A DNA stretch of 64,000 bases from positions 1-64,000 of the IMG/VR virus record IMGVR_UViG_3300045988_122545. The stretch is one strand, 5' to 3'. Numbering within the stretch: position 1 is the first letter of the stretch; every line of letters starts with the position of its first letter. The stretch is from a virus. This document shows, in pieces, positions 2,785-63,007 of the stretch. The position numbers and the translations under genes were made by a program. The notes under the pieces are model-generated. The model saw only the letters and a list, made by a program, of their open reading frames with translations, was not told where the DNA came from and did no database searches.

Positions 2785-5700
2785 TTATTTACCTTTACAT
2801 TTATTTTTAACTATTTCTCCTAAAGCGTTCATATCATTTAAGAATGAATCGTCTATAGGATTAGATATATTCAAATCCCCAGTATCTACAGTATTAACTT
2901 GTTTAACAGCACTTTCAATTAAAGCGGACATATCTGTAAATATATCAGCTTCATTTTGTAAAACTTCAGGTATGTTTTCTGTCATATTATTTGTTGCATC
3001 TCCAGTTGAAAAAATTTCTATACTTTCTGGAGACATATCCTATACATCAACAAAACCTGTGTAATCTGTAATCATAGAAGTATCTATACTAGAATATTCA
3101 TCGTATCCTGGATCTACATAAGTTTGACCTTGTTCTTTAGCTTCTACTGCATCGATTAATACGTCATCTATAATATTATAATTTAATATGTAGTTTTTAA
3201 CATCATCTTTTACATCATTTACTCTATTTTTACCCGATATATTCATGATTTTATCTACAATATTATCATTCTGTAATTTTATAGATTCTTGTATTTGTAA
3301 TCCGTCTATTAATGCTGCACTTGTTATATTGTTTTGTGGGAAAGCTGATATTTGTGTAGAACCGTTTACATACTCAAATATTCTAGTCCCATTATCTTCT
3401 ACTCCTAACTTAGGAGTAAGCAAATACACACTTCTAAGAGAACTTCTTATTTGAGATTCATCATCAGCTCTATTAAGCATTATTTCTCCAACCTTACGAT
3501 ATAATTCACCATTAACGTTTATATATCTGTCTTTGGTATTTTTAGTCATAAATAATACTCTCTTTCTAGATCCATCAGGAGCAATAAATAAGGTCATATC
3601 ACCGTTATTATCATATTTATAAGGCTTTACTATTTCTTTATTATACCACATATTTCTTGCTATTGTAGTAGAAATAGATGGATAATATCCAGATTTAGGA
3701 TCATCTATAGATTCAGCAACCATCTGACCAGCTACAGAATTAACATCACCAAAATCTTCTAAAGCTTTTCTGAATTCAGTAGTATACCCTTTCTTTATCT
3801 TCCAACTAACTGGTACCAAATTAAAGAAATTATTTACCGAATTATTATCGTATGTTGAAAAGTAAGCATACATAGCTAAATCTTCTGCAAAATCTCTGAT
3901 AAATTCATCTTCATGATTTAATAAATCGTCAAACGCAGATATTAATACGTTTTCTGTATATTTATCATTATTCATTGATGAATTAGATAATATTACTTTA
4001 TCTAACATTGTTTTAGTACCATCAGCTGAATATTCTTGTAAATAATTAAGTAACGCATTTTTAATAGTTCCTGTATTCTTATCAATAAGTGTAGGATAAT
4101 TATCTTTTTCCTCTAGAATATAACGTTTAATTGCAGTTAATCTTCTACACATTGTATCTGGACCAATAAACATATCATATAATTTATCTCCATCAATATT
4201 AAAATTAGGATTATTGGCAGCAATTCTTGCTCTAATTACAGATTCCAATGCTTTATTTATTTGAACAACATATTCCTAATCATTTGTATATTGATATTGA
4301 GAATCATCTTCAGATGGACCAACAAAAGTACGCATAACATTAGTATGTATATCCTCATATTCTTTTGTTGCAACAATAGATTGTTTTCTAAGAATGGTTC
4401 TAGGTAATGTTAAACCGTAATACAATTTCTTACCTAAGAATGTAACTTGCATATAATATTCTATTGGAGTTTGATTTTCTATTAATACAGCTTTACTATC
4501 ATTTATGTAGAATATATCTTCATTCTCTTTAGAGAAAGTAGAAACCATATTTTTAAAATTCATTTGAACAGCAAGATTGTTACCATATTTCTTAGTATCG
4601 ATCTAAGATATTTTTACAAGTTTTGCTAATCGTTTAGCATCTGAATTTAACTCTTTATATGCTTTCATTACAATCAACTGCTAATAAGCATATTCAGCGC
4701 TAGTCTTACTTGCTTTTAAAGCATTTTTCAGTTTTGATTCATCAAATACCCAATCATATTGAATATTAGTTATATTTGCGTCATTCATCTGACCAATAGG
4801 TTTCATCTTACTATATGGTCTTTCTCTTAACCAACCATTATACAATTTTATATATTTCTATTTTTCACTTCCATCAGGCATTATGTTAATAGCGTCATAC
4901 AATACTTTCTCATATCGCTGATAATATTTATTTATAACTTTTGCTTCGGTTATAGTAGGATCTACACCATATACACCCCTGTTTGCGATTTGCTCAGCTG
5001 CATACATTTTTAATATATCTTGGGCTAAGAAATAGAATGTTGACTATCCTTTACCGCCTCGCAATAATAAGTTAGTCATGTTATATGTAATCTAATTAAC
5101 ATTTAATGCGATGATATATGGATCTTTTGCAACGTCAACGTGAGCGTTAATCATTGCAGATAACCAGTCTAATATTCTAAATCCGTCTTGTCCTTTTATA
5201 GCATCAAGATTTCCAAGATTATATCTATTACCGTTAGCATAATTCATACACAAATGTGCAAATTGTGTTAATGCATGGTTTGTAGAATTCAATGCAAACG
5301 GAGCAATACCTGCTTTACCACTGGTATATTCTATTTTTCTAGATAATTGGAACGATGGTAATAAAGCGTAACCAGGTTTAGCTTCTGCTAATACGGAAGG
5401 CATAACTAATTTTAATACGTCTTTCTTTAAGAAAGAAGTAAGTGTATCGATTGATGCTTTAGTTTCAGCCATATTGTTTTCGTCAGAAATACACATCATC
5501 TAATATTCCAACATACGATTTGTTATAGCTTCCTTACTTTGCTTATAGAAATCTACATTCTCATCATATTCTACTTTTTTACCGTTTTCAAAATCATATA
5601 TAGCTATATACAATTTATCAACGTCAAAGTCAGAACCAGTCATAGCGGTAAATCCATCTGGAACAACTATTGTATCAGCATAAGTTTCTGGTAATACATC

Positions 5701-51347: not shown

Positions 51348-51412
51348 TGGTAATTTTTGTGGTGGAAATGATTTTAAATCTTTCATAATTAATTAGTAAA
51401 TGTATATACATT

Positions 51413-54400
51413 ATCATCGTCAAACTTTACTGGACTTTCGTCATCAAACCAATTTTGCGCAAATATTGGTCCATCAAAAAGTAAACGACTCTTATTTTCT
51501 TTTTCTTTTTCTTTTACTACTACATTAAATAATTGTTCACGATAAATCATTACCTACATCAGAGCCATGACTCTATCGGTATTTATTATATCGTTGTATG
51601 CAATTAATTCCTCTAGTAATGGTTCAGATAATATGTTGTATAAGTTCTTTTTGCCATCAGCATTTATATCATTCAACCAGTCTTTTATTAATCCTTCACC
51701 CCAAGCTTTAATTGATTTATTCATATGGCAACCTTTCTTTCTCTGTACTTTAGAATTACCAACAATATCATTGATTATATCTGGTTGATCTGCTAGTAAA
51801 TAATCACAATGTTTGTTAGCAAAGTAAACGAATAAGCCTTTATTCTGATTTTCATACATTGCTCTGGCATTATAGTATATCAACAACTTACGAACATTTT
51901 CGTAGAAATCATCTGCTGCTTGAGGTCTACCAGTATATTCTGCAACAATTATATCTGAATAAGATTCTATATTCTATATTCTTTTATATATGATACACGA
52001 ACCTAATGAATTTGTTCCTGACTAATCATGGTCATATGGGTCAATTCCTGCAATATATAAACCAAATGGTGCATCTTTCATAGGATGTTCCCATATAACT
52101 ATAGAACCAGTAGGATCATCATCTTTATTTAGAGGATAATGTGTAATATCTCCTGTCTTTTTAATTACCCAACTAATATTTCCATCAGGTGTTTGTACTA
52201 AATCACCTATTTGTTTATGATTCTATAGCTGTTTATTTGTACGTATTCTAGCCAACTATTCCTATAGCTCTTTCTTAGGAAATATGTTTCCTCCAAATTC
52301 CAAACAAGCTTCTGCTGGAGTAATACATCTTTCACAAACATACCTATCTACTGCTACTGAATTAGTAGCATTTTGTATCATTTCTTTACGTTGCTCCAAT
52401 ATAAAATCTAGAGAAGGTTTACGTAATGTATTACCATCATTATCCATATAAATACGATTACATTTATCATCTCTAATATCCATATTAGCGTACTATGGTA
52501 TAAAGAATCCACACGTACTAGTTACTGCATTTTCATCCCATATATTCTATAATTCTACACAGTTATATCCTTTTGGTTTATAGAACATATCTTTCAATGT
52601 AGCAAAGTTTGATTCTTCATCTCCACCAGTATTATGTGTTACAATACCATTTACAATATAATTATGCTGTTCTTTAGCAGTAATGTTATATATATCTTGT
52701 ATACCGATATCTGTTATATTTGTGATTTTATCTGCAACTATTCCACAAAGATATTTATTATATTTTGGTAACTCGGACTGAATAAATAAATAAATTAAAT
52801 CCAGTGCTGCTGATTTTCTAGAAACTGTTAATTTTATATGTTGAGAAAATCTACCTAGACTTACCACATCAGCAATTTCTAATCGATATTCGCCGTTTTT
52901 ATCAGAAATAAAATGATCCTTGTATTTCCTAATTCTATTAGTAGGTTTAATATAACGAATAATCCCATGTATACCAAAATGCAACAACGCTTCTTGTACC
53001 TAAAGTAATATGTCTTTCTAACACTACGTTAATACTATTCTGGCTCGTTTTTTACTAAAGTGTATGTACCCATCAGTATCGTATAATCCGCCAATTAATT
53101 CACTTATTGTATATTCATCATAACTATTGAAATCTATAGGCAGACGTTTATTACCTTTAGTTTGTCCATATATACCTAATTTTCTTAGCTATTTGCATAT
53201 TCCTTTTATACGGATTTCTTGATAATTCTTATTATCTTTAGTAGTATATTGTTTTTCAATAACTGTATCGAAATGAGAATGAACATAATCTAATATTTCC
53301 TATTCGCAATTACTTAGTATGGGCGTTTTATTATTTCCATAGCTTCCGTCGCCTATTAACCATCCTATAAATCTAGGTTCCCACATTACGTTTTTGCCAA
53401 ATATAGGGATCTAATCTATCAAACCTACTTGGTCTCCTATTTTACATTTTTGTGCTTCGTGCCATAACCAAGACTTCATACGTTCGTTTTCAAATCTTTT
53501 TCCAGAAACACGTTTTGTCCTACCAGGAGTAGACCATAATAAAGGATGGTCTTTACTACATCTTATTGTTCTACCCGATTGTAATTCTATTTGAACACAT
53601 TCTTTCTATGATATCGGATTAATGTTTTCTATGTTTTGTATAGACGCCTGATAGGTATCCCATCCAATTATACCATCTTCTTGTTTTAAATTCTCTATAT
53701 TAATACAATTACCGTCTGATGTCCATACTCTAGATCCTTTGCACACACATCCAAATGCTATCATGGTACCAAATGCTACACCATCAACTTCAACAGACGG
53801 TCTAGCAATTTGCCATGCTGCACCTAATTCTTTAAATGAACCAGCTTCTTCGAATAAGATTAGTTTTGCTTTCTTACCACGGACTATATCAGGATTATCC
53901 TTAAGAGTAACACCAATTATTTCTGATTTATAACCTAATTCTACTTCATTACCAAATTCATCTTTAGTAAAGAATCCAGCTCTTTTACGCATTGCTGTAT
54001 TAACAGATCTTTTCTTACCCCATGCAGTATTCTTATCGATAAAGTCCATGTAATCCCACGCTTTAGTAAGAATACCATCATCTGTTAAGTATTGTTTATT
54101 TGAAGCATATACATAGGATTTAGAATTAGGAATAAGGTAGTAATTACGACATAACATAGAACCACCTTTATAACTATTATGAGTGGGTATAAAATCTTTT
54201 GTTATATATAAATGATTTTCGTTATCGATGCATAAGCATCGTTGTTTTTCAAATTTGCCAGTTCTACGAATTGCTTTTATTCCGATACCATTATAATTAT
54301 ACTTTCTATCTTTACGAATTTTCTCCAATTTTCTAGGAAGTTTAAAGATATCTTCTTGTGTAGTAATACACAATTCCCAATGAGGTAAAGTATTAGATTT

Positions 54401-55609
54401 GCAACCGTTATTAAATTCTACTCCAAATCTACCTTCTATTTCTTTAGATTTGTGACATCTTATACCGAGACTTCTTAATACAAATTGTAAATCATCAATT
54501 AATTGTTCTGAAGTTGATACGAACGTAGAAGCGCCATTTGTAATGCTACCGTCAGTATCCATTAAACCTCGTACCAATTCAAATCGATTTTCAACAGAAG
54601 TGTATTTGTAATTTTCAGGAATAAATTTTTTATTTGCTTTTACTTTTATTCCTAATTTTTTTAATTCTCTATTTAAATTATTATGTTTTTTATCTTTTGA
54701 TATTATTACGTAAGCATATTTATCGGATTCTATTTTTTTAATAATATAATCTGGTAATCTACGTGATAACTCTTCTACGATAAATTGATCGGCTGTAGAA
54801 AATCTAACTTGTGATCCACATATGTATCCATCTCCTAGTAATACACCTAATACATAAGGATCAATGTGTATTGGTTTTTCATCAAATCGTAAAGGATTTA
54901 TAGCAGGTACTTTATAAGGATAATGCTCTTTTCCTTTTGAACCTTGTGTTAATTTGCGTTTAGCATATTCTTTAGTAGGCATTATATAAAATTTCTTACC
55001 GTTTCTGCACGTAGCCCATAAATGATTAGCTCCGCATCTAACAACACGACCATCTTGAAATTCAACTTCGTATACTTCTTGAATACCTTGTTCTACAATA
55101 TCTCCAATTTTAACAGGACTACCGTTAGGATTCATTACCATATCACCAACTTTTAAAGATCCCATTTGAACAAAACCGTTCGGCGTTAATACTTCTTCAG
55201 AATAAGGTTGTTCATATCCTTTACGTCTACTTTTAAGTACGCATAAATGCTTACCTGATTCCTCAGCATCCTAGATGGTTTGAAAATAAAAATAGTCGTA
55301 ATCCCAGAAATCAGGGAATGCGACTTCCTAGACAGTCACGATTTTATCTTTACCATGTCTGTCTTTTATCTTCTTATTTACAGATCTATTAATAGGACAA
55401 AAGTTTAAATAGAAATAATTATAACCACTAATCCAATCTCCATCTTCTGCTGTATATCCTTCCAAACATCTACGTTTCTATTCATCCCAGTAAGAGAAAT
55501 ATTCTGAAGTATTAGATGCATAATTACAGTATTTACCTGTCTATTCAAACGTAATAGCTGGTTCTCTGAATTTATTACTATTTGCTATTTTTTTATTAAA
55601 GTCTACCAT
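51413..55609 (-). CDS. terL: Terminase large subunit interrupted by two inteins, about 17 in-frame TAG
   Basis: Pieces 53606..55165, 52547..52987, 52262..52483 and 51554..51886 are all in one frame. ATG 55607-55609 and TGA 51413-51415 were phase-checked. The exteins carry CVLKSRRKG (P-loop-like), KLILFEEAGSF (Walker-B-like), IAFG|TGGDEES across intein 2, and AGIDPYDHD (nuclease-like). Confidence 0.8.
52631..53749 (-). mobile_element. TerL intein 2 (canonical class 1) with a LAGLIDADG homing endonuclease, containing in-frame TAG codons
   Basis: It starts FG|CVCKGSRVWTSDG (Cys at 53747-53749). Block B is GRTIRCSKDHPLL. LAGLIDADG motifs are IGWLIGDGSYG and LIGGLYDTDGY. It ends NGIVTHN|TGG (52631). 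The length is 1119 nt, in phase. Confidence 0.75.
54176..55213 (-). mobile_element. TerL intein 1 with a LAGLIDADG homing endonuclease. Candidate class 3 intein (no Cys/Ser at position 1).
   Basis: Hint block A-like EQPYSEEVLTPNGF. Block B GRVVRCGANHLW has Trp two residues after His. LAGLIDADG motifs LGVLLGDGY and LVRGLMDTDGS. Block F QRCLCIDNENHLYI. The C-terminus is IPTHN|S (54176). The N-terminal boundary is approximate. Confidence 0.65.
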
Positions 55610-55624
55610 TACTGCGCGCTTATT

Positions 55625-55660
55625 AAAAAACTCCCTACCGATAAAGGAAGGGAGTTTTTG
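55625..55660 (-). terminator. Intrinsic terminator-like hairpin (A-run / stem / T-run, bidirectional) ending about 15 nt upstream of the TerL ATG
   Basis: Minus strand reads CACAAAAACTCCCTTCCTTTATCGGTAGGGAGTTTTTTAATAAGCGCGCAGTAATG. Confidence 0.65.
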
Positions 55661-55738
55661 TGAGTATTTATTTTCTTATCTAAAAATTTACACTATGAAA
55701 GTTTTGATAACTTTTTAAATTTTTCATTTAACTTGTAG

Positions 55739-55806
55739 TTCCACAGGTTGGGCTTGAACCAACATCACCGTTCCCTATGGACGTGACTTACTTAGTCGAC
55801 TGTGGA
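55739..55806 (-). ncRNA. tRNA-like element (68 nt) with normal acceptor, D and T arms but an aberrant anticodon arm
   Basis: Acceptor TCCACAG/CTGTGGA is perfect. D arm is GACT-AAGTA-AGTC. T arm is GTTGG-TTCAAGC-CCAAC, followed by discriminator A. The anticodon arm CGTCC-AUAGG-GAACG has a C.A mismatch and only a 5-nt loop (or a 3-bp stem with the 9-nt loop CCAUAGGGA). No canonical U33/anticodon register exists. Confidence 0.5.
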
Positions 55807-55876
55807 TAATAGAATATGTTGATTAATTTTTATTTTTTATGACAAAAACTTTTTTCAAAAAATTTTATATTTTTTG

Positions 55877-55964
55877 TCGCGGTGGTAGGAGTCAAACCCA
55901 CCCGGTCGGCTTCAGAAGCCACACTGTTTTAGAGACAGTCCATGCAATCGTACATCACACCGCG
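55877..55964 (-). tRNA. Amber-suppressor tRNA (anticodon CUA) with class II architecture (21-nt variable region)
   Basis: Acceptor CGCGGTG/CACCGCG. D arm ATGT-ACGATT-GCAT. Anticodon stem ACTGT/ACAGT with loop C-U-C-U-A-A-A (U33, CUA, A37). Variable arm GGCTT-CTG-AAGCC. T arm GTGGG-TTTGACT-CCTAC. Discriminator A. No encoded CCA. Confidence 0.85.
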
Positions 55965-56090
55965 TAACCGGAGTTCTTTAAAGTCTACTCCGAAAAGACT
56001 ATTTTAACCCATAACCAAAAAATACCTAGTTTATGAAAACTATTTCATTTATAACGTTAAAAAAGTGTATCGACAATCGTCGAAAATTAA

Positions 56091-56237
56091 TTAAAGACCT
56101 AACATGCGTTTAAACCAGTTCTTCTTAGGTAAACCAAGTTGTTTACGCGCATTCAAATCTGCTTCAATAGCAGCATTAATTTCCCAAACTGTAACGCAAT
56201 TTGTCAAATCCAAAATATAAGTATCATTCTTTTTCAT
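56091..56237 (-). CDS. Hypothetical small protein (48 aa)
   Basis: Read base by base from ATG 56235-56237 to TAA 56091-56093: MKKNDTYILDLTNCVTVWEINAAIEADLNARKQLGLPKKNWFKRMLGL. It is the last standard-code gene before the tRNA junction. Confidence 0.55.
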   Translation of the reverse strand: MKKNDTYILDLTNCVTVWEINAAIEADLNARKQLGLPKKNWFKRMLGL

Positions 56238-56299: not shown

Positions 56300-56827
56300 T
56301 TATCTATCCAACTCGTATGCATTTATCTGAGCATTACCTCTAACTTTAGTATTCTCTAACTCTTCAGCTTTAACAGCTTTCTCAAGAAAATCTACTGTTT
56401 GAAATACAGCTTTAACCTTTTCCATACCAGCTAGCAATACTTGAATCTTCTTTTCATCCAACTCTTCACTAAGAGATTCTTCATAATATGTACTGATTGT
56501 ATCAATCTTATTACGCATTGCTTCCAGCATCTTCAAATTACGAGTATTAGATAATTCTTTATATTCGTCTCTACAAGCTTGTTCTTCTGGAGTAAGAGTA
56601 TAATTAGAATCACCAAATATCTTAATCTTTAAAGTGTTCTCTCTTATTTCTTTAACCATACTTTTAACATATGGACTATTCCAGTAATCACAAAGTATAA
56701 TAAAAGAAAGTACGTTATTCGCATGATTTTTATCTTTAGTAGATTCCCAATATTTTTTAAAAGGAGGTAAAGCAAGCATATCTGCATGTATAGTTACTTT
56801 ACCACCAAGTATATCAAACAGCTTCAT
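56300..56827 (-). CDS. Hypothetical protein (175 aa)
   Basis: Intact ORF with a TAA stop and no TAG. Its start overlaps the upstream stop. Confidence 0.8.
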   Translation of the reverse strand: MKLFDILGGKVTIHADMLALPPFKKYWESTKDKNHANNVLSFIILCDYWNSPYVKSMVKEIRENTLKIKIFGDSNYTLTPEEQACRDEYKELSNTRNLKMLEAMRNKIDTISTYYEESLSEELDEKKIQVLLAGMEKVKAVFQTVDFLEKAVKAEELENTKVRGNAQINAYELDR

Positions 56828-57174
56828 TATTTACAAGCTTTTATACATGAATCTGAACAGCAGTTACAATCACAACATTTTTCATGCTTTTCTTTTTCCT
56901 TATCAATGTTTTCTTTTAGAGCTTTATAGTAATTCTTCAATTGTTCATCTTTAATTACCAGTATTTCTCTATTGCTAATATCACCATTATTACCATACAT
57001 TCTGATGATGATATCTCCAGCATTAACATGAATGTCATTCAACGTACCTTCTTCATCAGCTATCCACATATAGTCAATGTTAGTACCAAAGTTATCTAAC
57101 ATTTTAATTTCATCATTTTCTTTATCAAACTTAATAAGATTGTATCCAGTTTTTGCATCAATATATGTTATCAT
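56827..57174 (-). CDS. Hypothetical protein with a Cys-cluster C-terminus (HEKCCDCNCCSDSCIKACK)
   Basis: Intact ORF of 115 aa. Confidence 0.8.
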   Translation of the reverse strand: MITYIDAKTGYNLIKFDKENDEIKMLDNFGTNIDYMWIADEEGTLNDIHVNAGDIIIRMYGNNGDISNREILVIKDEQLKNYYKALKENIDKEKEKHEKCCDCNCCSDSCIKACK

Positions 57175-57341
57175 AGTTTCTTTATTTTAATGTTTCACAA
57201 TACTTTTCATTATAATATTTCAATCTTTCTTCAGCTTCTTCCCAACTAACTTCTTGATCTCTGTAATTAGGATACTGTCTATAATTGTATAAAATCCCTT
57301 GATAATATTTTATCAATTCGATTAGTTCTTGCTTATAATCT

Positions 57342-57668
57342 TCATTTGTCATTGTCTATATCTTTTTCTTCTATAGTAACACCTTTACCGTTATGGTAAC
57401 CCCAACTTAAAAACATCGCATTACACAATACGTGATCGATATGTGGAAGACCAGATTCTGGATCATTCATTTCACCTTTACTTATTGCTGTTAAATGTCT
57501 CAATAATGCCCCTTTATAACGATTCCAGAAATTAGGTAACTCTTGCCAACTGTTATCAGAATATTTTTTTGCTCCAAAAGTAAGAATTTTAGCAACTGAT
57601 TCAATGGTTGACATCGGTACCAATTCCATTCTAACTTTATCATTATCGTATTTCTTTGCTTCGTTCAT
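57342..57668 (-). CDS. DUF5664-like dATP/dGTP pyrophosphohydrolase-domain protein
   Basis: Pattern YDNDKVRMELVP...FGAKKY...W....RYKGALLRHL...GE.NDPESGLPHIDHVLCNAMFL, matched to that family from memory. Confidence 0.55.
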   Translation of the reverse strand: MNEAKKYDNDKVRMELVPMSTIESVAKILTFGAKKYSDNSWQELPNFWNRYKGALLRHLTAISKGEMNDPESGLPHIDHVLCNAMFLSWGYHNGKGVTIEEKDIDNDK

Positions 57669-57948
57669 CTTTAATCTTTTTAAAATGTTCTAATACTGTA
57701 GAATACATGTCCTGTATTTGCTGTTTACGTTCATCGATATCATCTGTTTCAGACATATTATACATCTGCTCCATAATTATATCGATGAAGTCTTGATATA
57801 ATATCGTATCAGAGTTAATTAGTTCATCTACTAATTTAAACAATTCTTCAGCTACTTCTGTTTTAGCTACTTTATCAAAACCGTCTTTCTCTAATTTCCA
57901 TAGTGTTTTAGATTCTTCGTATGTCATATCAAAATAATCTTTTATCAA
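57643..57948 (-). CDS. Hypothetical protein (start uncertain: TTG at 57948 or ATG at about 57927)
   Basis: ORF-track entry. The first codon is TTG. Confidence 0.6.
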   Translation of the reverse strand: MIKDYFDMTYEESKTLWKLEKDGFDKVAKTEVAEELFKLVDELINSDTILYQDFIDIIMEQMYNMSETDDIDERKQQIQDMYSTVLEHFKKIKDERSKEIR

Positions 57949-58061
57949 AGTAAGCTACCGTGAACATTATATTCTGTTGTAATTGAAAATCGATTGGTAT
58001 CGTCTTTAACCATTGAAACTGATATAAAGGCGCTAAACATTCTTCTATAAACTGTTGCATA

Positions 58062-59963
58062 TTATTTTATTTTATCTTTAATTTTATCATATAATTTATC
58101 AGCTAAGTAAGCAGCATCAGGATGTACTCCAGTGGCACCATATTTAGGACTACGTAACTTAAAGAATCCTTTCCAATCTGATTCAAATCCTGTCATTACT
58201 AATTCCGTTTTTAAAGCATTTGGTAATACTTGTCTAGCTTGTTGAGGCTTCCAACTTTCACTAAGTAATGTAAAATACATAGATTCAGCAAATTCTAAAG
58301 ATTGTTTGAAATAGTAGAAACACTCATTATCATCGGCTACTATTTCTCCAAACTTATTTACTTCTGCCCAACTTGGTATAATAAATGTAATTTCATTATT
58401 AAACTTACTCTTACTATAATTACAGTATCTAGTAGATTCCATAGCAAAACTAAATACACGATGTCTTACAAATTCATGTGATACACCTCTATCGCAAGTC
58501 CATTTAACGGTAATACGTTTTTCATGATATTCAGTTGGTTCACAGATATATTGTAAATCATCTAACCAATTGTTTTCAACAAGTACACGTAGATTGGTTG
58601 TTACATAGTTATGAAACATTCCGTTTTCTTCAATCACTGCTAGTCTCGAATACTTATTCATAGCATAGTCTTCTACAGCACAAAAATCTCTAGCGGAATT
58701 TGGTAAATCCAAGTAAACAGTACCATGTTCAAGCATAGCTCCATGACCAGATTTAATCATTCTATCAACAAATGCCTTAGCACTATCTTCAGTAATCTTA
58801 TCTTCGGATTTATAACAATTACCAATCCAGCATGTCTTGCCGTTAAACCGTATACATATTATACCATTATTTGTTTGTGTGCAATAAACGGTTGTAACAA
58901 GATGTGTTGTGCGAATATGTTTTCTAGAATCTATTATCCAAGAATCTCGCATATGTTCTTGTATATAACATTTTTGTGATATTTCTGGATCATAACTTAT
59001 TGTCGCATTTCTTCCTTTTAAGATGAATAGTTCCTGTATTTCGTTTAGTAAACGTATACTTACAGATAAATATCTATTAATTCTAGTTTTATTATGAGAT
59101 CCATCACCTAAATATAGTATACGCAGAAAATGATCGATTTGTCTAACAGATAAATTTCGAAACCATTCTGGTAAATGTTTGTTCTGTGAATATCTTCCAC
59201 ACATTTCTTCGAACCATTCTACATAACATTGATTTCCAAACTTTATCCATTTTATATTTGGTTTCCGTCTATCGAAATCAATATAATAATGTATATGTTC
59301 GTTTTTCAATGCGTTTATTACTAATTCGTATAACTCATTATTTTCATCTTGAGTTATACATATATAACTACCGGAATTATATTTTTCTCCATGAAATGTA
59401 TGTCCTTCAGTTATATAAGCCGCAAGTATAGTTAATATATCGTCGTTTACATTAAAACTTTCTGTGGTATTATATTCTCTATTTCCACCATTCATTTTCT
59501 TAGTATACACGATATGTTCTTCAAAATCATTAATTTTGTATACTGCTCCATTAAAATATTTAGGTATTCTAAATCTATTTCTTTTTCCTGGATTATGTCC
59601 ATATACTAATTGTTTAGCGTTTAGAAAAGTATATTGTCTTGCATTAACTGGAGATTGATAAATACGATGATCTTCTGTTACAAGAAAATTTATATTTGCG
59701 TGAGTACATTCTACTCCGTCATTATCATAAGGTTTACTAAATATATTTGGTGCTTCATATTCCAATATATTTTTATCAGGATTATAAGTTAATACTCTAT
59801 CTTTATTATTATCTATTTCATCAATATATATAAAACCTCTATCAGTTAATACTTCAGTATCTTCTGTAAAGCATGTTCGACCAGCTAATTCTATTTGTTT
59901 ATACATACCTTCTAATCCAGGTTGCTGTTCAATTATTTCTACGTTTGGTTTTATCAATTTCAT
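58062..59963 (-). CDS. thyX: FAD-dependent thymidylate synthase ThyX, interrupted by an intein
   Basis: Exteins: ...IELAGRT|CYKSEDKITEDSAKAFVDRMIKSGHGAMLEHG... and the ThyX signature EFVRHRVFSFAMESTRY (RHRxxSxxxxSxRY). Confidence 0.9.
   Translation of the reverse strand: MKLIKPNVEIIEQQPGLEGMYKQIELAGRTCFTEDTEVLTDRGFIYIDEIDNNKDRVLTYNPDKNILEYEAPNIFSKPYDNDGVECTHANINFLVTEDHRIYQSPVNARQYTFLNAKQLVYGHNPGKRNRFRIPKYFNGAVYKINDFEEHIVYTKKMNGGNREYNTTESFNVNDDILTILAAYITEGHTFHGEKYNSGSYICITQDENNELYELVINALKNEHIHYYIDFDRRKPNIKWIKFGNQCYVEWFEEMCGRYSQNKHLPEWFRNLSVRQIDHFLRILYLGDGSHNKTRINRYLSVSIRLLNEIQELFILKGRNATISYDPEISQKCYIQEHMRDSWIIDSRKHIRTTHLVTTVYCTQTNNGIICIRFNGKTCWIGNCYKSEDKITEDSAKAFVDRMIKSGHGAMLEHGTVYLDLPNSARDFCAVEDYAMNKYSRLAVIEENGMFHNYVTTNLRVLVENNWLDDLQYICEPTEYHEKRITVKWTCDRGVSHEFVRHRVFSFAMESTRYCNYSKSKFNNEITFIIPSWAEVNKFGEIVADDNECFYYFKQSLEFAESMYFTLLSESWKPQQARQVLPNALKTELVMTGFESDWKGFFKLRSPKYGATGVHPDAAYLADKLYDKIKDKIK
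58818..59873 (-). mobile_element. ThyX intein (352 aa) with a LAGLIDADG homing endonuclease. C-terminal junction is ...CWIGN|C (no penultimate His).
   Basis: It starts CFTEDTEVLTDRGF (Cys31). Block B is TEDH. LAGLIDADG motifs are LAAYITEGHT and LRILYLGDGSH. It ends WIGN followed by the +1 Cys of the conserved RTCYKS extein motif. Confidence 0.8.
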
Positions 59964-59964
59964 C

Positions 59965-60246
59965 TTAATTATTTTTAATTTTGTTAGTTTTATCTTTTTC
60001 TAATTTTAAGTGTTCTATAAAATCTGAAATTACATTTTCCAAACGTTGTAATTTATCTATAAAATCTTCTATTGTATCGTAATTTGCGATATGCAATTTT
60101 ACTGTCTTACTACAATCACTTATTTTTAAAAACGTACTTCGATAAGTATCACCTACAATATAATCTTTAACCATTCCATCAAATGCTACAACATTACTAG
60201 TAGATGGATTATTTTCTTTATTTAACCATATTTGTTTTTTATACAT
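59965..60246 (-). CDS. Hypothetical protein (93 aa)
   Basis: Intact ORF with a TAA stop. Confidence 0.8.
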   Translation of the reverse strand: MYKKQIWLNKENNPSTSNVVAFDGMVKDYIVGDTYRSTFLKISDCSKTVKLHIANYDTIEDFIDKLQRLENVISDFIEHLKLEKDKTNKIKNN

Positions 60247-60257
60247 AATAATATAAT

Positions 60258-60638
60258 TTAATTATTGTTTTCAACACCATCAGGTTGAGGCATTTCTTGA
60301 ATTCTTATTGCTTTTATTGTACTTTTACCATAAACTAAAGCTTTTACTATTCTATGCCAACCATCTGCAATATAACCGTGATCATCTAGTATAACAGGAT
60401 AATCCAAATTAGCTGATTGTACTCTTTTAAAATGATTAGCTATCTGTTTTACGTTACTCAAGCTAGTCCATGGAGAATAACTTAAATCTATACCAGCTAA
60501 AGGTAAATCGAATGTAGGATATTCTTTTTCTTTACACCATTGAATCAGATTAGATGCTGACCATATATTATTATCAGAGCGATATGTATTTTCAGCAAGA
60601 CCCTGTGTCTGTAGTTCTACTATCGGTGGATTGTTCAT
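60258..60638 (-). CDS. ParB-like nuclease-domain protein
   Basis: ParB N-terminal-domain motif YPVILDDHGYIADGWHRIVKAL (DGxHR). Confidence 0.65.
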   Translation of the reverse strand: MNNPPIVELQTQGLAENTYRSDNNIWSASNLIQWCKEKEYPTFDLPLAGIDLSYSPWTSLSNVKQIANHFKRVQSANLDYPVILDDHGYIADGWHRIVKALVYGKSTIKAIRIQEMPQPDGVENNN

Positions 60639-61077
60639 TTTCTTCTTTATTGTTTTTAAAGATTACTATCATACTTGGAAAAGGAGCTGGATAAAAAGCT
60701 TCACCATTTAAAGAAAATTTTAGTCTTCCTTTTATAAATCTTATTTCAGCTTTACCGTATATAAATTTATGAAAATATCTTGTATCGGTTCTAGCCGGAA
60801 TTAACATTACTACAGTAGCTCCGTTTTTTGCTTCATTACTGCATTTTTCAACCCATTGACTTATTTCCTTACCATAAGGAGGATTACAAAATACTATTTC
60901 ATTTTCCCACGACTTACTTAAACCGTCATCTTCTTTAGTATAGAATTTTTCACATTTTGCAGTCTCTTTGGTACAGCATGGATCTAAAGTAAAATGAAAT
61001 TCTGCATTTAATTTATCAAATAGTTTTTGTGGAGTTTCCCACTCCATCTTTTGCGATGATAGAAGAGCTTTGTTCAT
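60592..61077 (-). CDS. Phage Dam-type DNA N6-adenine methyltransferase
   Basis: WETPQKLF...FTLDPC...IVFCNPPYGKEISQWVEKC...VVMLIPARTDTRYFH. Catalytic NPPY motif plus the typical phage Dam-family order. Confidence 0.8.
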   Translation of the reverse strand: MNKALLSSQKMEWETPQKLFDKLNAEFHFTLDPCCTKETAKCEKFYTKEDDGLSKSWENEIVFCNPPYGKEISQWVEKCSNEAKNGATVVMLIPARTDTRYFHKFIYGKAEIRFIKGRLKFSLNGEAFYPAPFPSMIVIFKNNKEENEQSTDSRTTDTGSC

Positions 61078-61264
61078 ACTTTTTCTTTAATTTAAACTTA
61101 AATAAGTAAGCAAACATGATAGATTTCATATTATCATCGTCTGCTATTTTTTCTTTTGCAAATTTAAATGGACTATTACAAATAACCTCTATTACTGGTA
61201 TTGGTAAATTATATTTCTTAGCAAGAACTGAATATATGTTATTTTGCTTTTGTAACATCGTCAC
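61016..61264 (-). CDS. Hypothetical protein (probable ATG start at about 61258)
   Basis: The ORF-track entry begins with GTG. It overlaps the methyltransferase start by about 60 nt. Confidence 0.55.
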   Translation of the reverse strand: MTMLQKQNNIYSVLAKKYNLPIPVIEVICNSPFKFAKEKIADDDNMKSIMFAYLFKFKLKKKYEQSSSIIAKDGVGNSTKTI

Positions 61265-61667
61265 TTATATTTATATCTTGAAAAGGTTCTTGTTCTAAAT
61301 ATACTTTCTTATAATTAGTATTATTTCTAAGATTATCTAGATTTGTAGCATCTACTGAATCAGGTCTAACAATATTAATTGCTATTAGATAATCTTCTAT
61401 ACTTTCACAAGACTTTATCAAGCTTCTTAATAATACTATTTCTTTTCTAGTATAAGGTTTGATAGGTATGAATAAATGATAATCATATTTGAACTTATTC
61501 ATTTTAGTTATTCCTATGCAACTCTCCTTAGTAAGGATAAATAAGGAATTATAAGGTTTCCTCCCTTTCTTAAATAACCATAAGAATCTTTTCCACAAAC
61601 TGTATTTCTTTACTACAATCAAAGATCCTGCTGGGTATTTTTTATATGATTTTAAATATCTTCCCAT
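61239..61667 (-). CDS. Hypothetical protein (142 aa)
   Basis: Intact ORF with an overlapping stop/start with the upstream gene. Confidence 0.75.
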   Translation of the reverse strand: MGRYLKSYKKYPAGSLIVVKKYSLWKRFLWLFKKGRKPYNSLFILTKESCIGITKMNKFKYDYHLFIPIKPYTRKEIVLLRSLIKSCESIEDYLIAINIVRPDSVDATNLDNLRNNTNYKKVYLEQEPFQDINISDDVTKAK

Positions 61668-62029
61668 TATATCTTGAATATTAAAGTAAGTTGTACTCTA
61701 TCTTTTATTATCTCTGGTATCAAAGCTTTATTTACAAAAAGCTCATCATCTGCTTTTCCTTTTACTAAGATACCTTTTTCTTTAAATTTTGTTATATATC
61801 GGCTTAAATTATCAGGTGTTATACCTAATTCTTGCTTGATAATCTTTCTATTCTTAGTAGAACATACATTCTTACTTTCTCCGGAAGTTGGATCATATTT
61901 CATATCCAACTCCACTAGTTTAGAAAGTAATTCTAGTTCTCTATCTGTTATATCAAGTATGCCGTTTAGAGATTTTAAAAATTCATAGATTAAAGTATCT
62001 TTAGTAACAGTCTTTACTAATTTATTCAT
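61667..62029 (-). CDS. Winged-helix/HTH DNA-binding protein (putative transcriptional regulator)
   Basis: KIIKQELGITPDNLSRYITKFKEKGILVK is a helix-turn-helix-plus-wing pattern. Confidence 0.5.
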   Translation of the reverse strand: MNKLVKTVTKDTLIYEFLKSLNGILDITDRELELLSKLVELDMKYDPTSGESKNVCSTKNRKIIKQELGITPDNLSRYITKFKEKGILVKGKADDELFVNKALIPEIIKDRVQLTLIFKI

Positions 62030-62429
62030 TAATCTTGTTTTTAATACTGTTTAAAACTTTAATCATGTTATAGTATACTGTTTCAGCTTCAACTTTTACA
62101 CATGGCTGTACATCACCATTATGGAAGCTTTCAATCATATCTCTATAACTATTTTCGTATGTATCAATCAGTTCATCTACGTAATCTGCGATATCGTTTA
62201 CCTTCTGTTCATAGATATCAGATGCTTCTTCTTCAACTTCTATCATGAATTCTTTTTCTACGAATTCGTCAATTACGTCTTGTGACATTTCCATTTGTAC
62301 TTTTGATATTGATGCACCATTCTTGTGTTCATCAGTACGATCCATAGAGTATATACCATCTTCGTTTAATTCAAAGATATCACCCTTTTTTGCTATACCA
62401 AATGATTTAATTACTTTATAAGTTCTCAT
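62022..62429 (-). CDS. Hypothetical acidic protein (135 aa)
   Basis: Intact ORF. Confidence 0.8.
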   Translation of the reverse strand: MRTYKVIKSFGIAKKGDIFELNEDGIYSMDRTDEHKNGASISKVQMEMSQDVIDEFVEKEFMIEVEEEASDIYEQKVNDIADYVDELIDTYENSYRDMIESFHNGDVQPCVKVEAETVYYNMIKVLNSIKNKINE

Positions 62430-62592
62430 CTTTATATCTATTTTTAAAATTGTTTTTCTTTTTATTATTACCGTAATTATTGCATTTATATGCTATATAT
62501 AAAACAATAAACGCTATTATTAACATTTCCATGTATAATAAAACGCATATTTTGCGTGTTGTTAATATTTTTAACACTTTTTAATATCTAAT

Positions 62593-62618
62593 AAAAAAGC
62601 CCCGCTAAAAGCGAGGCT
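62593..62618 (-). terminator. Intrinsic terminator
   Basis: Minus strand reads AGCCTCGC-TTTTA-GCGGGGCT followed by TTTTTT, 28 nt downstream of the TAA at 62646. Confidence 0.75.
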
Positions 62619-62645
62619 CAATTATATTGTAATATGATTATTAAA

Positions 62646-62999
62646 TTATTTCTTTTCGATAGCAACGATATCGTATGACTTTACTAATTTCGAGTCTTTG
62701 AACAAGTCAAATTCTTTCGCAAACTTTTTAGGGTACACCACGGTATCACCACAAGTAATGCTACCATCATATACAGTAGGAATAGCAATAACAATACCCT
62801 TTTCAAAATCGGATTCTTCTTCCTTAACAACTTCTTTTGTATCGTATAGATTATTTCCTTCTTCATCTTTCTTACCATTAGGTATTTGTTCAGTATACTT
62901 TCTCTTAATCATTGTAGGTTCTAATGGCTTAACTAAGAAGTCTTTCTCAAAAGTAAACTTGACACTACTTACTACTGTTTCTAATACTTTATCTTCCAT
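62646..62999 (-). CDS. GroES/Cpn10-like co-chaperonin
   Basis: FLVKPLEPTMIKRK ... EKGIVIAIPTVYDGSITCGDTVVYPKKFAKEF...SYDIVAIEK follows the Cpn10 pattern (V.PL..R.L.....G.V.A.G...........GD.V.Y..........DI.A). An expanded acidic loop sits at the mobile-loop position. Confidence 0.55.
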   Translation of the reverse strand: MEDKVLETVVSSVKFTFEKDFLVKPLEPTMIKRKYTEQIPNGKKDEEGNNLYDTKEVVKEEESDFEKGIVIAIPTVYDGSITCGDTVVYPKKFAKEFDLFKDSKLVKSYDIVAIEKK

Positions 63000-63007
63000 A
63001 TTCTAAA

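Follow-up and report, generated by a model that had tools for sequence, protein, structure and literature searches.

An amber suppressor tRNA with a long variable arm in a crAss-like phage whose TAG codons behave as glutamine

Introduction

Which amino acid does TAG specify in a phage whose amber suppressor tRNA carries the long variable arm of bacterial tRNAs for serine, leucine and tyrosine? The question is raised by positions 55877–55964 of a 64,000-nucleotide stretch of viral DNA (IMG/VR record IMGVR_UViG_3300045988_122545, positions 1 to 64,000; hereafter the window). The window belongs to a crAss-like phage of the family Suoliviridae, and its region encoding the major capsid protein (MCP), portal and TerL is 73–78% identical to those of cr6_1, cr60_1 and others. 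An initial annotation, made from the letters alone, had described a phage-encoded amber suppressor with a long variable arm, non-standard D and T loops and discriminator A73, had set its body apart from that of a normal class I tRNA-Gln, and had left the meaning of TAG unsettled. Our analysis bears out this description of the tRNA, and finds TAG to behave as glutamine. We consider it probable that the gene is a functional phage amber suppressor inserting Gln at UAG in the late genes, and that it is one allele of an exchangeable cassette.

The suppressor gene and its fold

ARAGORN makes a single tRNA call in the 64-kb window, at 55876–55964 on the minus strand with anticodon CTA; the label 'Pyl' that it attaches to this tRNA comes from the anticodon alone. 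The gene itself comprises 88 nt, from acceptor base 1 at 55964 to discriminator A73 at 55877. The ends given in the initial annotation are therefore exact from acceptor base 1 to A73, with the correction that the gene lies on the minus strand. Its parts are as follows.

55877–55964, minus strand: amber suppressor tRNA(CUA) (ARAGORN, minimum-free-energy cloverleaf, covariation across 5–6 distinct variants, 86–96% identical copies in at least 22 contigs)
55930–55932, minus strand: anticodon CUA (TAG on the plus strand) in the loop CUCUAAA (sequence; invariant in all long-arm copies)
55942–55955, minus strand: D arm with stem AUGU/GCAU, the pair A14-U21 added in the window variant, and a short loop with G18 and A19 (invariant stem)
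55902–55922, minus strand: variable region of 21 nt with the extra arm GGCUU-CUG-AAGCC (sequence and fold)
55885–55901, minus strand: T arm GUGGG-UUUGACU-CCUAC, with U56 in place of C56 (fold and alignment)

The acceptor stem, CGCGGUG/CACCGCG, consists of 7 Watson-Crick pairs and is followed by U8 G9, by a D stem AUGU(A)/(U)GCAU that closes the loop CGAU, by a GG linker, and by the anticodon stem ACUGU/ACAGU with its loop CUCUAAA (U33, CUA, A37). ARAGORN and folding recover every element of the 88-nt cloverleaf first proposed, from the 7-bp Watson-Crick acceptor and the CUCUAAA loop to the 21-nt variable region, the T arm and A73. The molecule has the generic features of a tRNA, namely a four-arm cloverleaf, a 7-nt anticodon loop with U33 and a purine at 37, a T loop with U54-A58 and a 12-bp acceptor/T stack. 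It also has the defining feature of class II, a variable region longer than 10 nt that forms a stem-loop (21 nt, with a 4–7-bp helix in every fold). This extra arm can be extended to 7 bp via G43-C60 and U44-A59 around a bulged G (columns 43–49/53–60). The base after A73 is C, and CCA is not encoded in the window copy but is encoded in several variants. Rfam returned no match at gathering score across the whole window, the tRNA falling short of the RF00005 threshold (29 bits); the best permissive model was tRNA-Sec, at 33 bits for the window copy and 33.4–34.4 bits for the other variants (cut-off 47). No theta or HDV-like ribozyme was found beside the tRNA with Rfam.

TAG codons align with glutamine

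The meaning of TAG was judged from DNA-level tblastn comparisons of window proteins (X at each TAG) with related loci, because the protein database holds proteins translated with TAG as Q. Three 'Q' residues of protein P0005, for example, are TAG in its own DNA (L337, 3001–3459). Protein-database counts for the M15 peptidase profile, which include such pre-translated entries and are partly circular, were discarded as primary evidence. Searches for related loci with an RNA polymerase (RNAP) fragment returned no loci, and those with a 1376-aa tail protein only 3.

In the 85 TAG columns where some relative has a sense residue, Q accounts for 39.9%, followed by E (12.3%), K (10.0%), T (7.1%), N (6.0%), S (4.2%) and L (1.4%), with Y at 0, and the rank order of residues is that seen at the window's own Gln columns. 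Summed BLOSUM scores over the TAG columns are highest for Q (178), ahead of E (111), K (61) and S (14). In the reverse comparison, some relative carries TAG at 25.4% of the window's Gln columns, compared with 3.7% of its Glu, 3.1% of its Lys, 2.7% of its Ser, 0.4% of its Tyr and 0.2% of its Leu columns. At conserved columns such as TerL 1039, 1212 and 1352 and MCP 32, Q is the sole sense alternative to TAG. In the M15 peptidase, the TAG of the motif YF-TAG-LKEL had been thought to occupy a Ser- or Thr-type site; at the DNA level this column turns out to be variable (Q 2, H 3, K 2, S 1, TAG 4), and at the protein's second TAG, which lies in the motif W-TAG-F, 10 of the 12 loci have Q or TAG.

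A sharper comparison comes from the contig IMGVR_UViG_3300045988_097163 (loci L003, L339 and L096), which is 96–98% identical to the window on both sides of the tRNA and has a different suppressor. The exchanged stretch of the window is the following.

55637–56137, minus strand: replaced cassette of 500 bp, the one part of the tRNA's surroundings left unaligned to L003 (blastn)

In its place L003 has 255 bp with a 73-nt class I tRNA(CUA). The two genomes have 91 TAG positions in common (37 + 54), and all 19 of their TAG/sense differences are CAG or CAA, occurring in both directions. Two further close relatives likewise differ from the window at TAG by Gln codons only; the near-identical set used for this count comprised four loci, with relatives at least 94% identical.

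Genomes that carry the long-arm tRNA themselves give the same picture. In the complete cr113_1 genome (98,557 bp), the long-arm tRNA is the only tRNA found by ARAGORN, and 239 in-frame TAGs occur within 14 late coding sequences alone (at least 239 genome-wide). Alignment of the window with cr113_1, two long-arm carriers from different subfamilies, yields 102 cells in which TAG faces a sense codon (among them Q 35, K 15, A 9, E 8). The likelihood computed from these alignments is best for Q, with K lower by 83 and S by 108 ln units, and Tyr and Leu falling below the eight best residues. When the TAGs of long-arm carriers are set against the window residue, Q is found at 29 of 60, S at 2, and L and Y at none, a profile that matches that of short-allele carriers. 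Among long-arm carriers at least 90% identical, 32 sites exchange TAG and Gln (CAA 21, CAG 14), any other residue reaching at most 4; CAA is two mutations away from TAG.

The alignments show TAG behaving as the equivalent of Gln in genomes whose sole tRNA is the long-arm tRNA, and on the same comparisons Ser, Leu and Tyr are excluded as its meaning. Both the Gln-like column profile and the differences between close relatives, all of them Gln, speak against the earlier view that the meaning of TAG was unsettled. A phage tRNA(CUA) beside TAG-rich late genes, with TAG sites that are Gln in homologues, is what characterises a code-15 suppressor, and both are found here. The slot of the window tRNA is also that of the annotated tRNA-Gln in cr6_1 and cr113_1.

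Conservation and covariation of the long-arm tRNA

Copies of the long-arm tRNA were gathered by pattern scans of IMG/VR, plus one pair of metagenome matches, and comprise 7 distinct sequence variants in at least 22 contigs, 86–96% identical. The copy in cr113_1 (Buchavirus coli, RefSeq) is 92% identical and annotated 'tRNA-Gln'. Scans of metagenome and genome contigs with the 16-mer ATGTACGNTTGCATGG were unspecific, with only L209 and L211 being true copies among the 240 loci returned.

Covariation statistics were computed on an alignment of five variants, in which 97.3% of cells pair, against 32–46% when partners are slid. Ten pairs are altered on both sides, 0 of 500 shuffles attain the covariation score, and compensatory change is seen at all 7 acceptor pairs and 2 anticodon-stem pairs. 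The acceptor stem is free to vary; invariant across the alignment are the D arm, extra arm, T arm, GG linker, anticodon and A73. The extra arm is backed by conservation, with no compensatory change and with a C.A mismatch within it in most variants. The suspected covariation of positions 19 and 56, the third bases of the D and T loops, proved real, the pair being A:U in most variants and G:C in the L021 type.

Two details of the fold depend on the variants. Because the A14-U21 pair is absent from one L349-type variant, found in 7 contigs, the conserved D arm is best described from the alignment as a stem of 4 bp and a loop of 6 nt in which A14 and G18 are retained. RNAalifold prefers a 6/6 split between acceptor and T helices, but the comparison favours 7/5, because the 7:66 pair changes from G-C to A-U.

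The invariance of CUA, U33, A37 and A73, together with compensated helices in 7 variants from at least 22 contigs, is the pattern of purifying selection on a working tRNA, as judged from sequence comparison. As to where this tRNA came from, the window copy shares its T stem with short alleles of the L002, L008, L027 and L018 types. With the arm removed, global identity does not single out the short alleles, at 51/72 against 47–50 for unrelated tRNAs and 55 for a random bacterial tRNA-Sec. The T arm and acceptor start of the L021 type are identical to the short allele L027 over 20 nt, which suggests a clue to the origin of the tRNA.

Comparison with known tRNA classes

None of the established tRNA classes that we tried accommodates the long-arm tRNA. 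tRNA-Pyl has the anticodon CUA, a variable loop of 3 nt, an anticodon stem of 6 bp and a single base separating acceptor and D stems; it was rejected on the 21-nt variable region, the 5-bp anticodon stem and the two bases U8 G9. A supF-like tRNA-Tyr was rejected on the first pair, which is C1-G72 here and G1-C72 in bacterial tRNATyr, and on the absence of Tyr from the TAG columns, although A73, U35 and the arm are all present. For bacterial tRNA-Leu, which is marked by A73, a G18G19/A20a D loop and A15-U48, A73 is present, but the D loop (CGAU or ACGAUU) has no GG, and Leu makes up the small share of TAG columns given above. For bacterial tRNA-Ser, G73 is absent, A73 being invariant, and Ser fits the TAG columns far worse than Gln. 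More generally, class II tRNAs have a 3-bp D stem with a large loop, where the phage tRNA has a 4–5-bp stem and a 4–6-nt loop.

The likeness to tRNA-Sec (RF01852) lies in the shape of the D arm, with its extended stem and 4-nt loop CGRU, and in the long extra arm; the T loop UUYGACU is also shared. The D stem of bacterial tRNA-Sec has 6 bp. This candidate was rejected in view of the 7/5 (12-bp) or 6/6 helices in place of 8/5, CUA in place of UCA, A73 in place of G73, and scores of 33–34 bits. tRNA-Sec serves sites that depend on a selenocysteine insertion sequence (SECIS), whereas the long-arm tRNA serves about 216 ordinary sense-like codons. The allo-tRNAs that Mukai and colleagues are said to have described from metagenomic data in 2017 reportedly have 8/4 or 9/3 cloverleaves with a long arm, unexpected anticodons and serine identity. 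They share a non-canonical long arm with the phage tRNA, which differs in its 7/5 (or 6/6) split and in serving a Gln-equivalent codon.

A canonical bacterial tRNA-Gln body, which is class I with a weak U1-A72 pair, G10 and, in E. coli, G73 (PMC9976931), was likewise rejected, given the long arm, the C1-G72 pair in 6 of 7 variants, A10 and A73. In function, the nearest relatives are the class I tRNA(CUA) genes of crAss-like phages that read TAG as Gln (PMC7886860; Borges 2021 preprint; PMC9523058), which are likewise phage-encoded. Their locus upstream of TAG-rich late genes, their leader pseudoknot and A73 are also shared, and the two forms are interchangeable in near-identical genomes. The long-arm tRNA differs from them in its 21-nt arm in place of a 4–6-nt loop, its short D loop lacking GG, its mostly U56 and its C1-G72. 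With the bacterial Ser, Leu and Tyr tRNAs (supD, supP, supF) it has in common the long arm, with Leu and Tyr A73, and with supF U35; it differs in lacking G73 (Ser) and a G18G19/A20a D loop (Leu), and in C1-G72 (Tyr).

No description of a long-arm or Sec-like suppressor in crAss-like phages, nor of a tRNA-Gln combining an extra arm, a short D loop, C1-G72 and A73, was found in the literature searched. The nearest remark concerns tRNA-Sup genes associated with theta ribozymes, 1.1% of which had a predicted Tyr isotype. The tRNA is of a known functional kind, the suppressor of a code-15 crAss-like phage, in a new structural form.

How the tRNA may acquire glutamine

Once TAG is seen to stand for Gln, the question becomes how so oddly shaped a tRNA would get glutamine loaded. 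TAG has been shown by mass spectrometry to be Gln in two other crAss-like phages (PMC9523058), and the decoding of UAG as Gln by short suppressors in crAss-like phages is established from genomics (PMC7886860) as well as mass spectrometry. The E. coli glutaminyl-tRNA synthetase (GlnRS) recognises U35 and also aminoacylates amber suppressors built on tRNAfMet and tRNATrp, and an amber tRNASer, with its long-arm body, accepts glutamine after changes at pairs 1-72 and 3-70 (PMC9976931). This engineered tRNASer (cited in PMC9976931) shares with the phage tRNA a long-arm body with CUA, and its charging shows that GlnRS is not blocked by an extra arm; it is an E. coli laboratory construct that needs a weakened first pair, whereas the phage tRNA is natural and has mostly C1-G72.

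We propose that the tRNA is expressed in the infected host and that the host GlnRS would charge it mainly via C34, U35 and A37 of the anticodon loop. The extra arm would pose no obstacle, since class I synthetases dock from the side of the minor groove and the variable region stays exposed to solvent. The long-arm tRNA would then do the same job as the short tRNA(CUA) alleles of sister genomes, with their weak U1 pair. To direct charging by the host GlnRS, as a step of its own, we assign about an even chance.

Several points weigh against a glutamine suppressor. A weak first pair, as expected for GlnRS-type recognition, is found in each of the 27 distinct short alleles (U.G 17, U-A 6, U.U 4), and 6 of the 7 long-arm variants have the strong C1-G72. 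Position 10, where G10 is a GlnRS contact in E. coli, is A10 in the long-arm tRNA. Many TAG positions are a legacy of ancestors that possibly used short alleles, and the residue profile is to that extent historical; this worry is reduced, not removed, by cr113_1 and by the comparisons among long-arm carriers only. Finally, a sizeable share of TAG columns holds residues other than Gln (K, E, A), though this share equals that of ordinary Gln columns at like divergence.

Of the other explanations, the one that survives best is that charging is ambiguous, or that Gln arrives by an indirect route, either through Glu-tRNA and amidation or through a phage factor that redirects a host synthetase, with the arm as its handle. 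The freely varying acceptor stem, set against the invariant D arm, extra arm, T arm and A73, hints from sequence comparison that recognition, by a synthetase or other factor, lies in the body and anticodon, because the body is frozen while the stem varies. One crAss-like genome is reported to encode a Gat amidotransferase subunit (bioRxiv 10.64898/2026.08.21.746148), and K and E are the next commonest residues in the TAG columns. Yet a Pfam scan of ten upstream proteins (late-gene products lying outside that scan) turned up no synthetase, amidotransferase or tRNA enzyme, and the cr113_1 annotation lists none either. The K and E share is that of ordinary Gln columns, nothing demands more than GlnRS, and we regard this explanation as improbable.

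Still less probable is that the tRNA keeps a class II identity and is charged with Tyr, Ser or Leu, TAG then meaning that residue or a mixture. The long extra arm and invariant A73 would suit it, as would the strong C1-G72, unlike the weak first pair of the short alleles. TyrRS wants A73 and U35, SerRS relies mainly on the extra arm and wants G73, and LeuRS wants A73 together with a G18G19/A20a loop (PMC9976931). The phage tRNA, however, lacks G73, the strongest element for bacterial SerRS, and the G18G19/A20a D-loop elements for LeuRS, and its first pair is not that of bacterial tRNATyr. The column profiles point the same way, in both directions of comparison and among the 60 TAGs of long-arm carriers, with Tyr, Leu and Ser rare or absent; the likelihoods place Ser 108 ln units below Gln, with Tyr and Leu outside the eight best residues; and the 97%-identical genome with a short allele retains the same TAG codons.

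The least credible alternative, that the long-arm RNA is no decoder and comes from a decaying or repurposed tRNA-like gene (a recombination scar, a signal for processing, or a decoy that engages a host nuclease or synthetase), with TAG read by a host tRNA or an undetected phage tRNA, can appeal to the roughly half of code-15 phages without a detectable Sup-CTA tRNA (PMC11210395; Borges preprint), to Rfam scores below threshold and to the decayed tRNA that adjoins, but it is set against the invariant CUA, U33, A37 and A73, the compensated helices, the CCA encoded in several variants, the position in the exact slot of a conventional suppressor behind the same leader pseudoknot, the status as only tRNA of cr113_1 with its at least 239 in-frame TAGs, and the finding that many 'missing' suppressors of relatives are intron-split or non-canonical alleles at the same locus.

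An exchangeable cassette with a leader pseudoknot

The glutamine suppressor would sit in a cassette made up of a leader pseudoknot, a tRNA(CUA) and sometimes a tRNA-Met, which in the crAss-like phages of the Suoliviridae has the TAG-free upstream genes on one side and TerL on the other. In L003–L082 the slot lies between TerL and the homologue of window positions 56300–56827. Portal and suppressor genes were compared across the 72 loci that have both. Where two loci have portal genes at least 97% identical, their tRNA(CUA) genes fall below 80% identity in 52% of pairs; on this measure the suppressor slot turns over far faster than the neighbouring genes. Near-identical upstream sequences precede at least six unrelated tRNA bodies, including the long-arm one in L083, and only the tRNA part of the window cassette matches other long-arm carriers. 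Such turnover could reflect escape from host defences that target tRNAs, or adaptation to the synthetases of different hosts.

The leader lies directly upstream of the tRNA.

55968–56000, minus strand: leader H-type pseudoknot AGUCU-uu-UCGGAGU-AGACU-uuaaaga-ACUCCGG, ending 3 nt before the tRNA 5' end

Of 44 distinct sequences upstream of tRNA(CUA) alleles (L001–L093, L349–L358), 42 contain a compact H-type pseudoknot, and both of its stems covary. A pseudoknot score of at least 10 is reached by 93% of the upstream sequences, compared with 22% of shuffles. Whatever the tRNA body, it ends 3–8 nt before the tRNA, with L1 of 0–3 nt, L2 of 0 nt and an A/U-rich L3 of 5–10 nt. No Rfam family matches the leader, and a reading as a preQ1-type riboswitch was rejected. 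The pseudoknot could control the processing or timing of the suppressor.

Other alleles at the locus are unusual in ways of their own. In L011 (5262–6816), L035/L036, L070 and L073, a class I tRNA(CUA) is interrupted within the anticodon loop, where about 1.1–1.2 kb is inserted after ...GGCTCT; the insertion contains an HNH-type endonuclease gene and has a group-I-like core at its end. ARAGORN misses the split gene, and Intron_gpI was not called in the insertion at Rfam gathering score. In L005, L018, L020, L067 and L075, tRNA(CUA) genes of 74–80 nt have normal acceptor and anticodon arms, D loops lacking GG, and T loops such as AGCAGAA, GGCAGAA, GGCCGAT and GGAGGCA; these too go undetected by ARAGORN. 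Alleles with such non-canonical T loops may account for some 'suppressor-less' recoded phages. Just upstream of its CUA tRNA, L067 also has a 105-nt tRNA-like gene (4018–4121; Rfam tRNA, 35.8 bits), in which the extra arm is long and the anticodon arm oversized and abnormal.

Genomic surroundings of the suppressor

All genes of the window lie on the minus strand. When TAG is read as sense, the DNA in open reading frames (ORFs) of at least 100 aa rises from 45.8 to 71.4 kb, and an RNAP-like ORF of 4,574 aa appears. The long-arm tRNA sits between TAG-free early genes and TAG-rich late genes, with the following features around it.

1–55609, minus strand: late block, with TerL carrying two inteins, portal, MCP, tail genes, a giant RNAP and others (ORFs, codon counts, homology to crAss-like phages)
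56300–63000, minus strand: essentially TAG-free upstream block, with a dNTP diphosphohydrolase domain, ThyX with an intein, Dam methylase and DUF7399 (ORFs, codon counts, Pfam)
56070–56083, minus strand: terminator-like hairpin that follows the final early ORF and precedes the tRNA unit
55631–55650, minus strand: terminator-like hairpin and T-run closing the tRNA unit, just before the TerL start at 55609 (homologous hairpin in L003)
55738–55803, minus strand: degenerate tRNA-Met(CAU)-like remnant downstream of the suppressor (cloverleaf-like fold; no ARAGORN call)

In-frame codons of the late block number 216 TAG, which the long-arm tRNA has to decode, 149 CAG and 459 CAA, and the upstream genes at 56300–63000 have a single in-frame TAG. 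The remnant at 55738–55803 aligns with the intact tRNA-Met that follows the long-arm tRNA in L083–L091, and this alignment suggests the import of a two-tRNA module.

The two inteins of TerL (51389–55609) span approximately aa 133–479 and 643–1000, and the first is absent from the 97%-identical contig L003. ThyX (58062–59963) is apparently split by an intein of LAGLIDADG type. Adjoining ThyX and Dam, the protein at 57342–57743 (minus strand) has the N-terminal domain of a dATP/dGTP diphosphohydrolase (PF18909, 109 bits), which may point to modified-nucleotide metabolism. Its sole in-frame TAG falls at aa 18, and the true start codon is probably further downstream.

Discussion

In practice, code 15, with TAG as Gln, is the one to use when translating this phage, however odd its tRNA. 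That meaning is itself ordinary; what is unusual is a class II-shaped tRNA for a Gln codon, in a hypervariable cassette with a conserved leader pseudoknot. A fuller picture would combine a natural Gln-accepting class II or Sec-like tRNA, its place as one of many fast-turnover cassette alleles, and a pseudoknot that gates both maturation and the switch of code from early to late genes. This combination we offer tentatively, and would think it rather unlikely to be right in every part.

One codon meaning is served at this locus by ordinary, long-arm, T-loop-aberrant and intron-split tRNAs, so that the architecture of the suppressor appears remarkably plastic. Suppressor tRNAs have been detected in only 40–52% of recoded phages (Borges preprint; PMC11210395), and divergent alleles explain part of this 'missing suppressor tRNA' problem. 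The leader pseudoknot is a candidate for the place where the code switch is timed. If the long-arm form indeed accepts Gln, it would allow one to study in a natural system how a body of class II shape is recognised, by GlnRS or by another route, and could furnish a new orthogonal-like scaffold.

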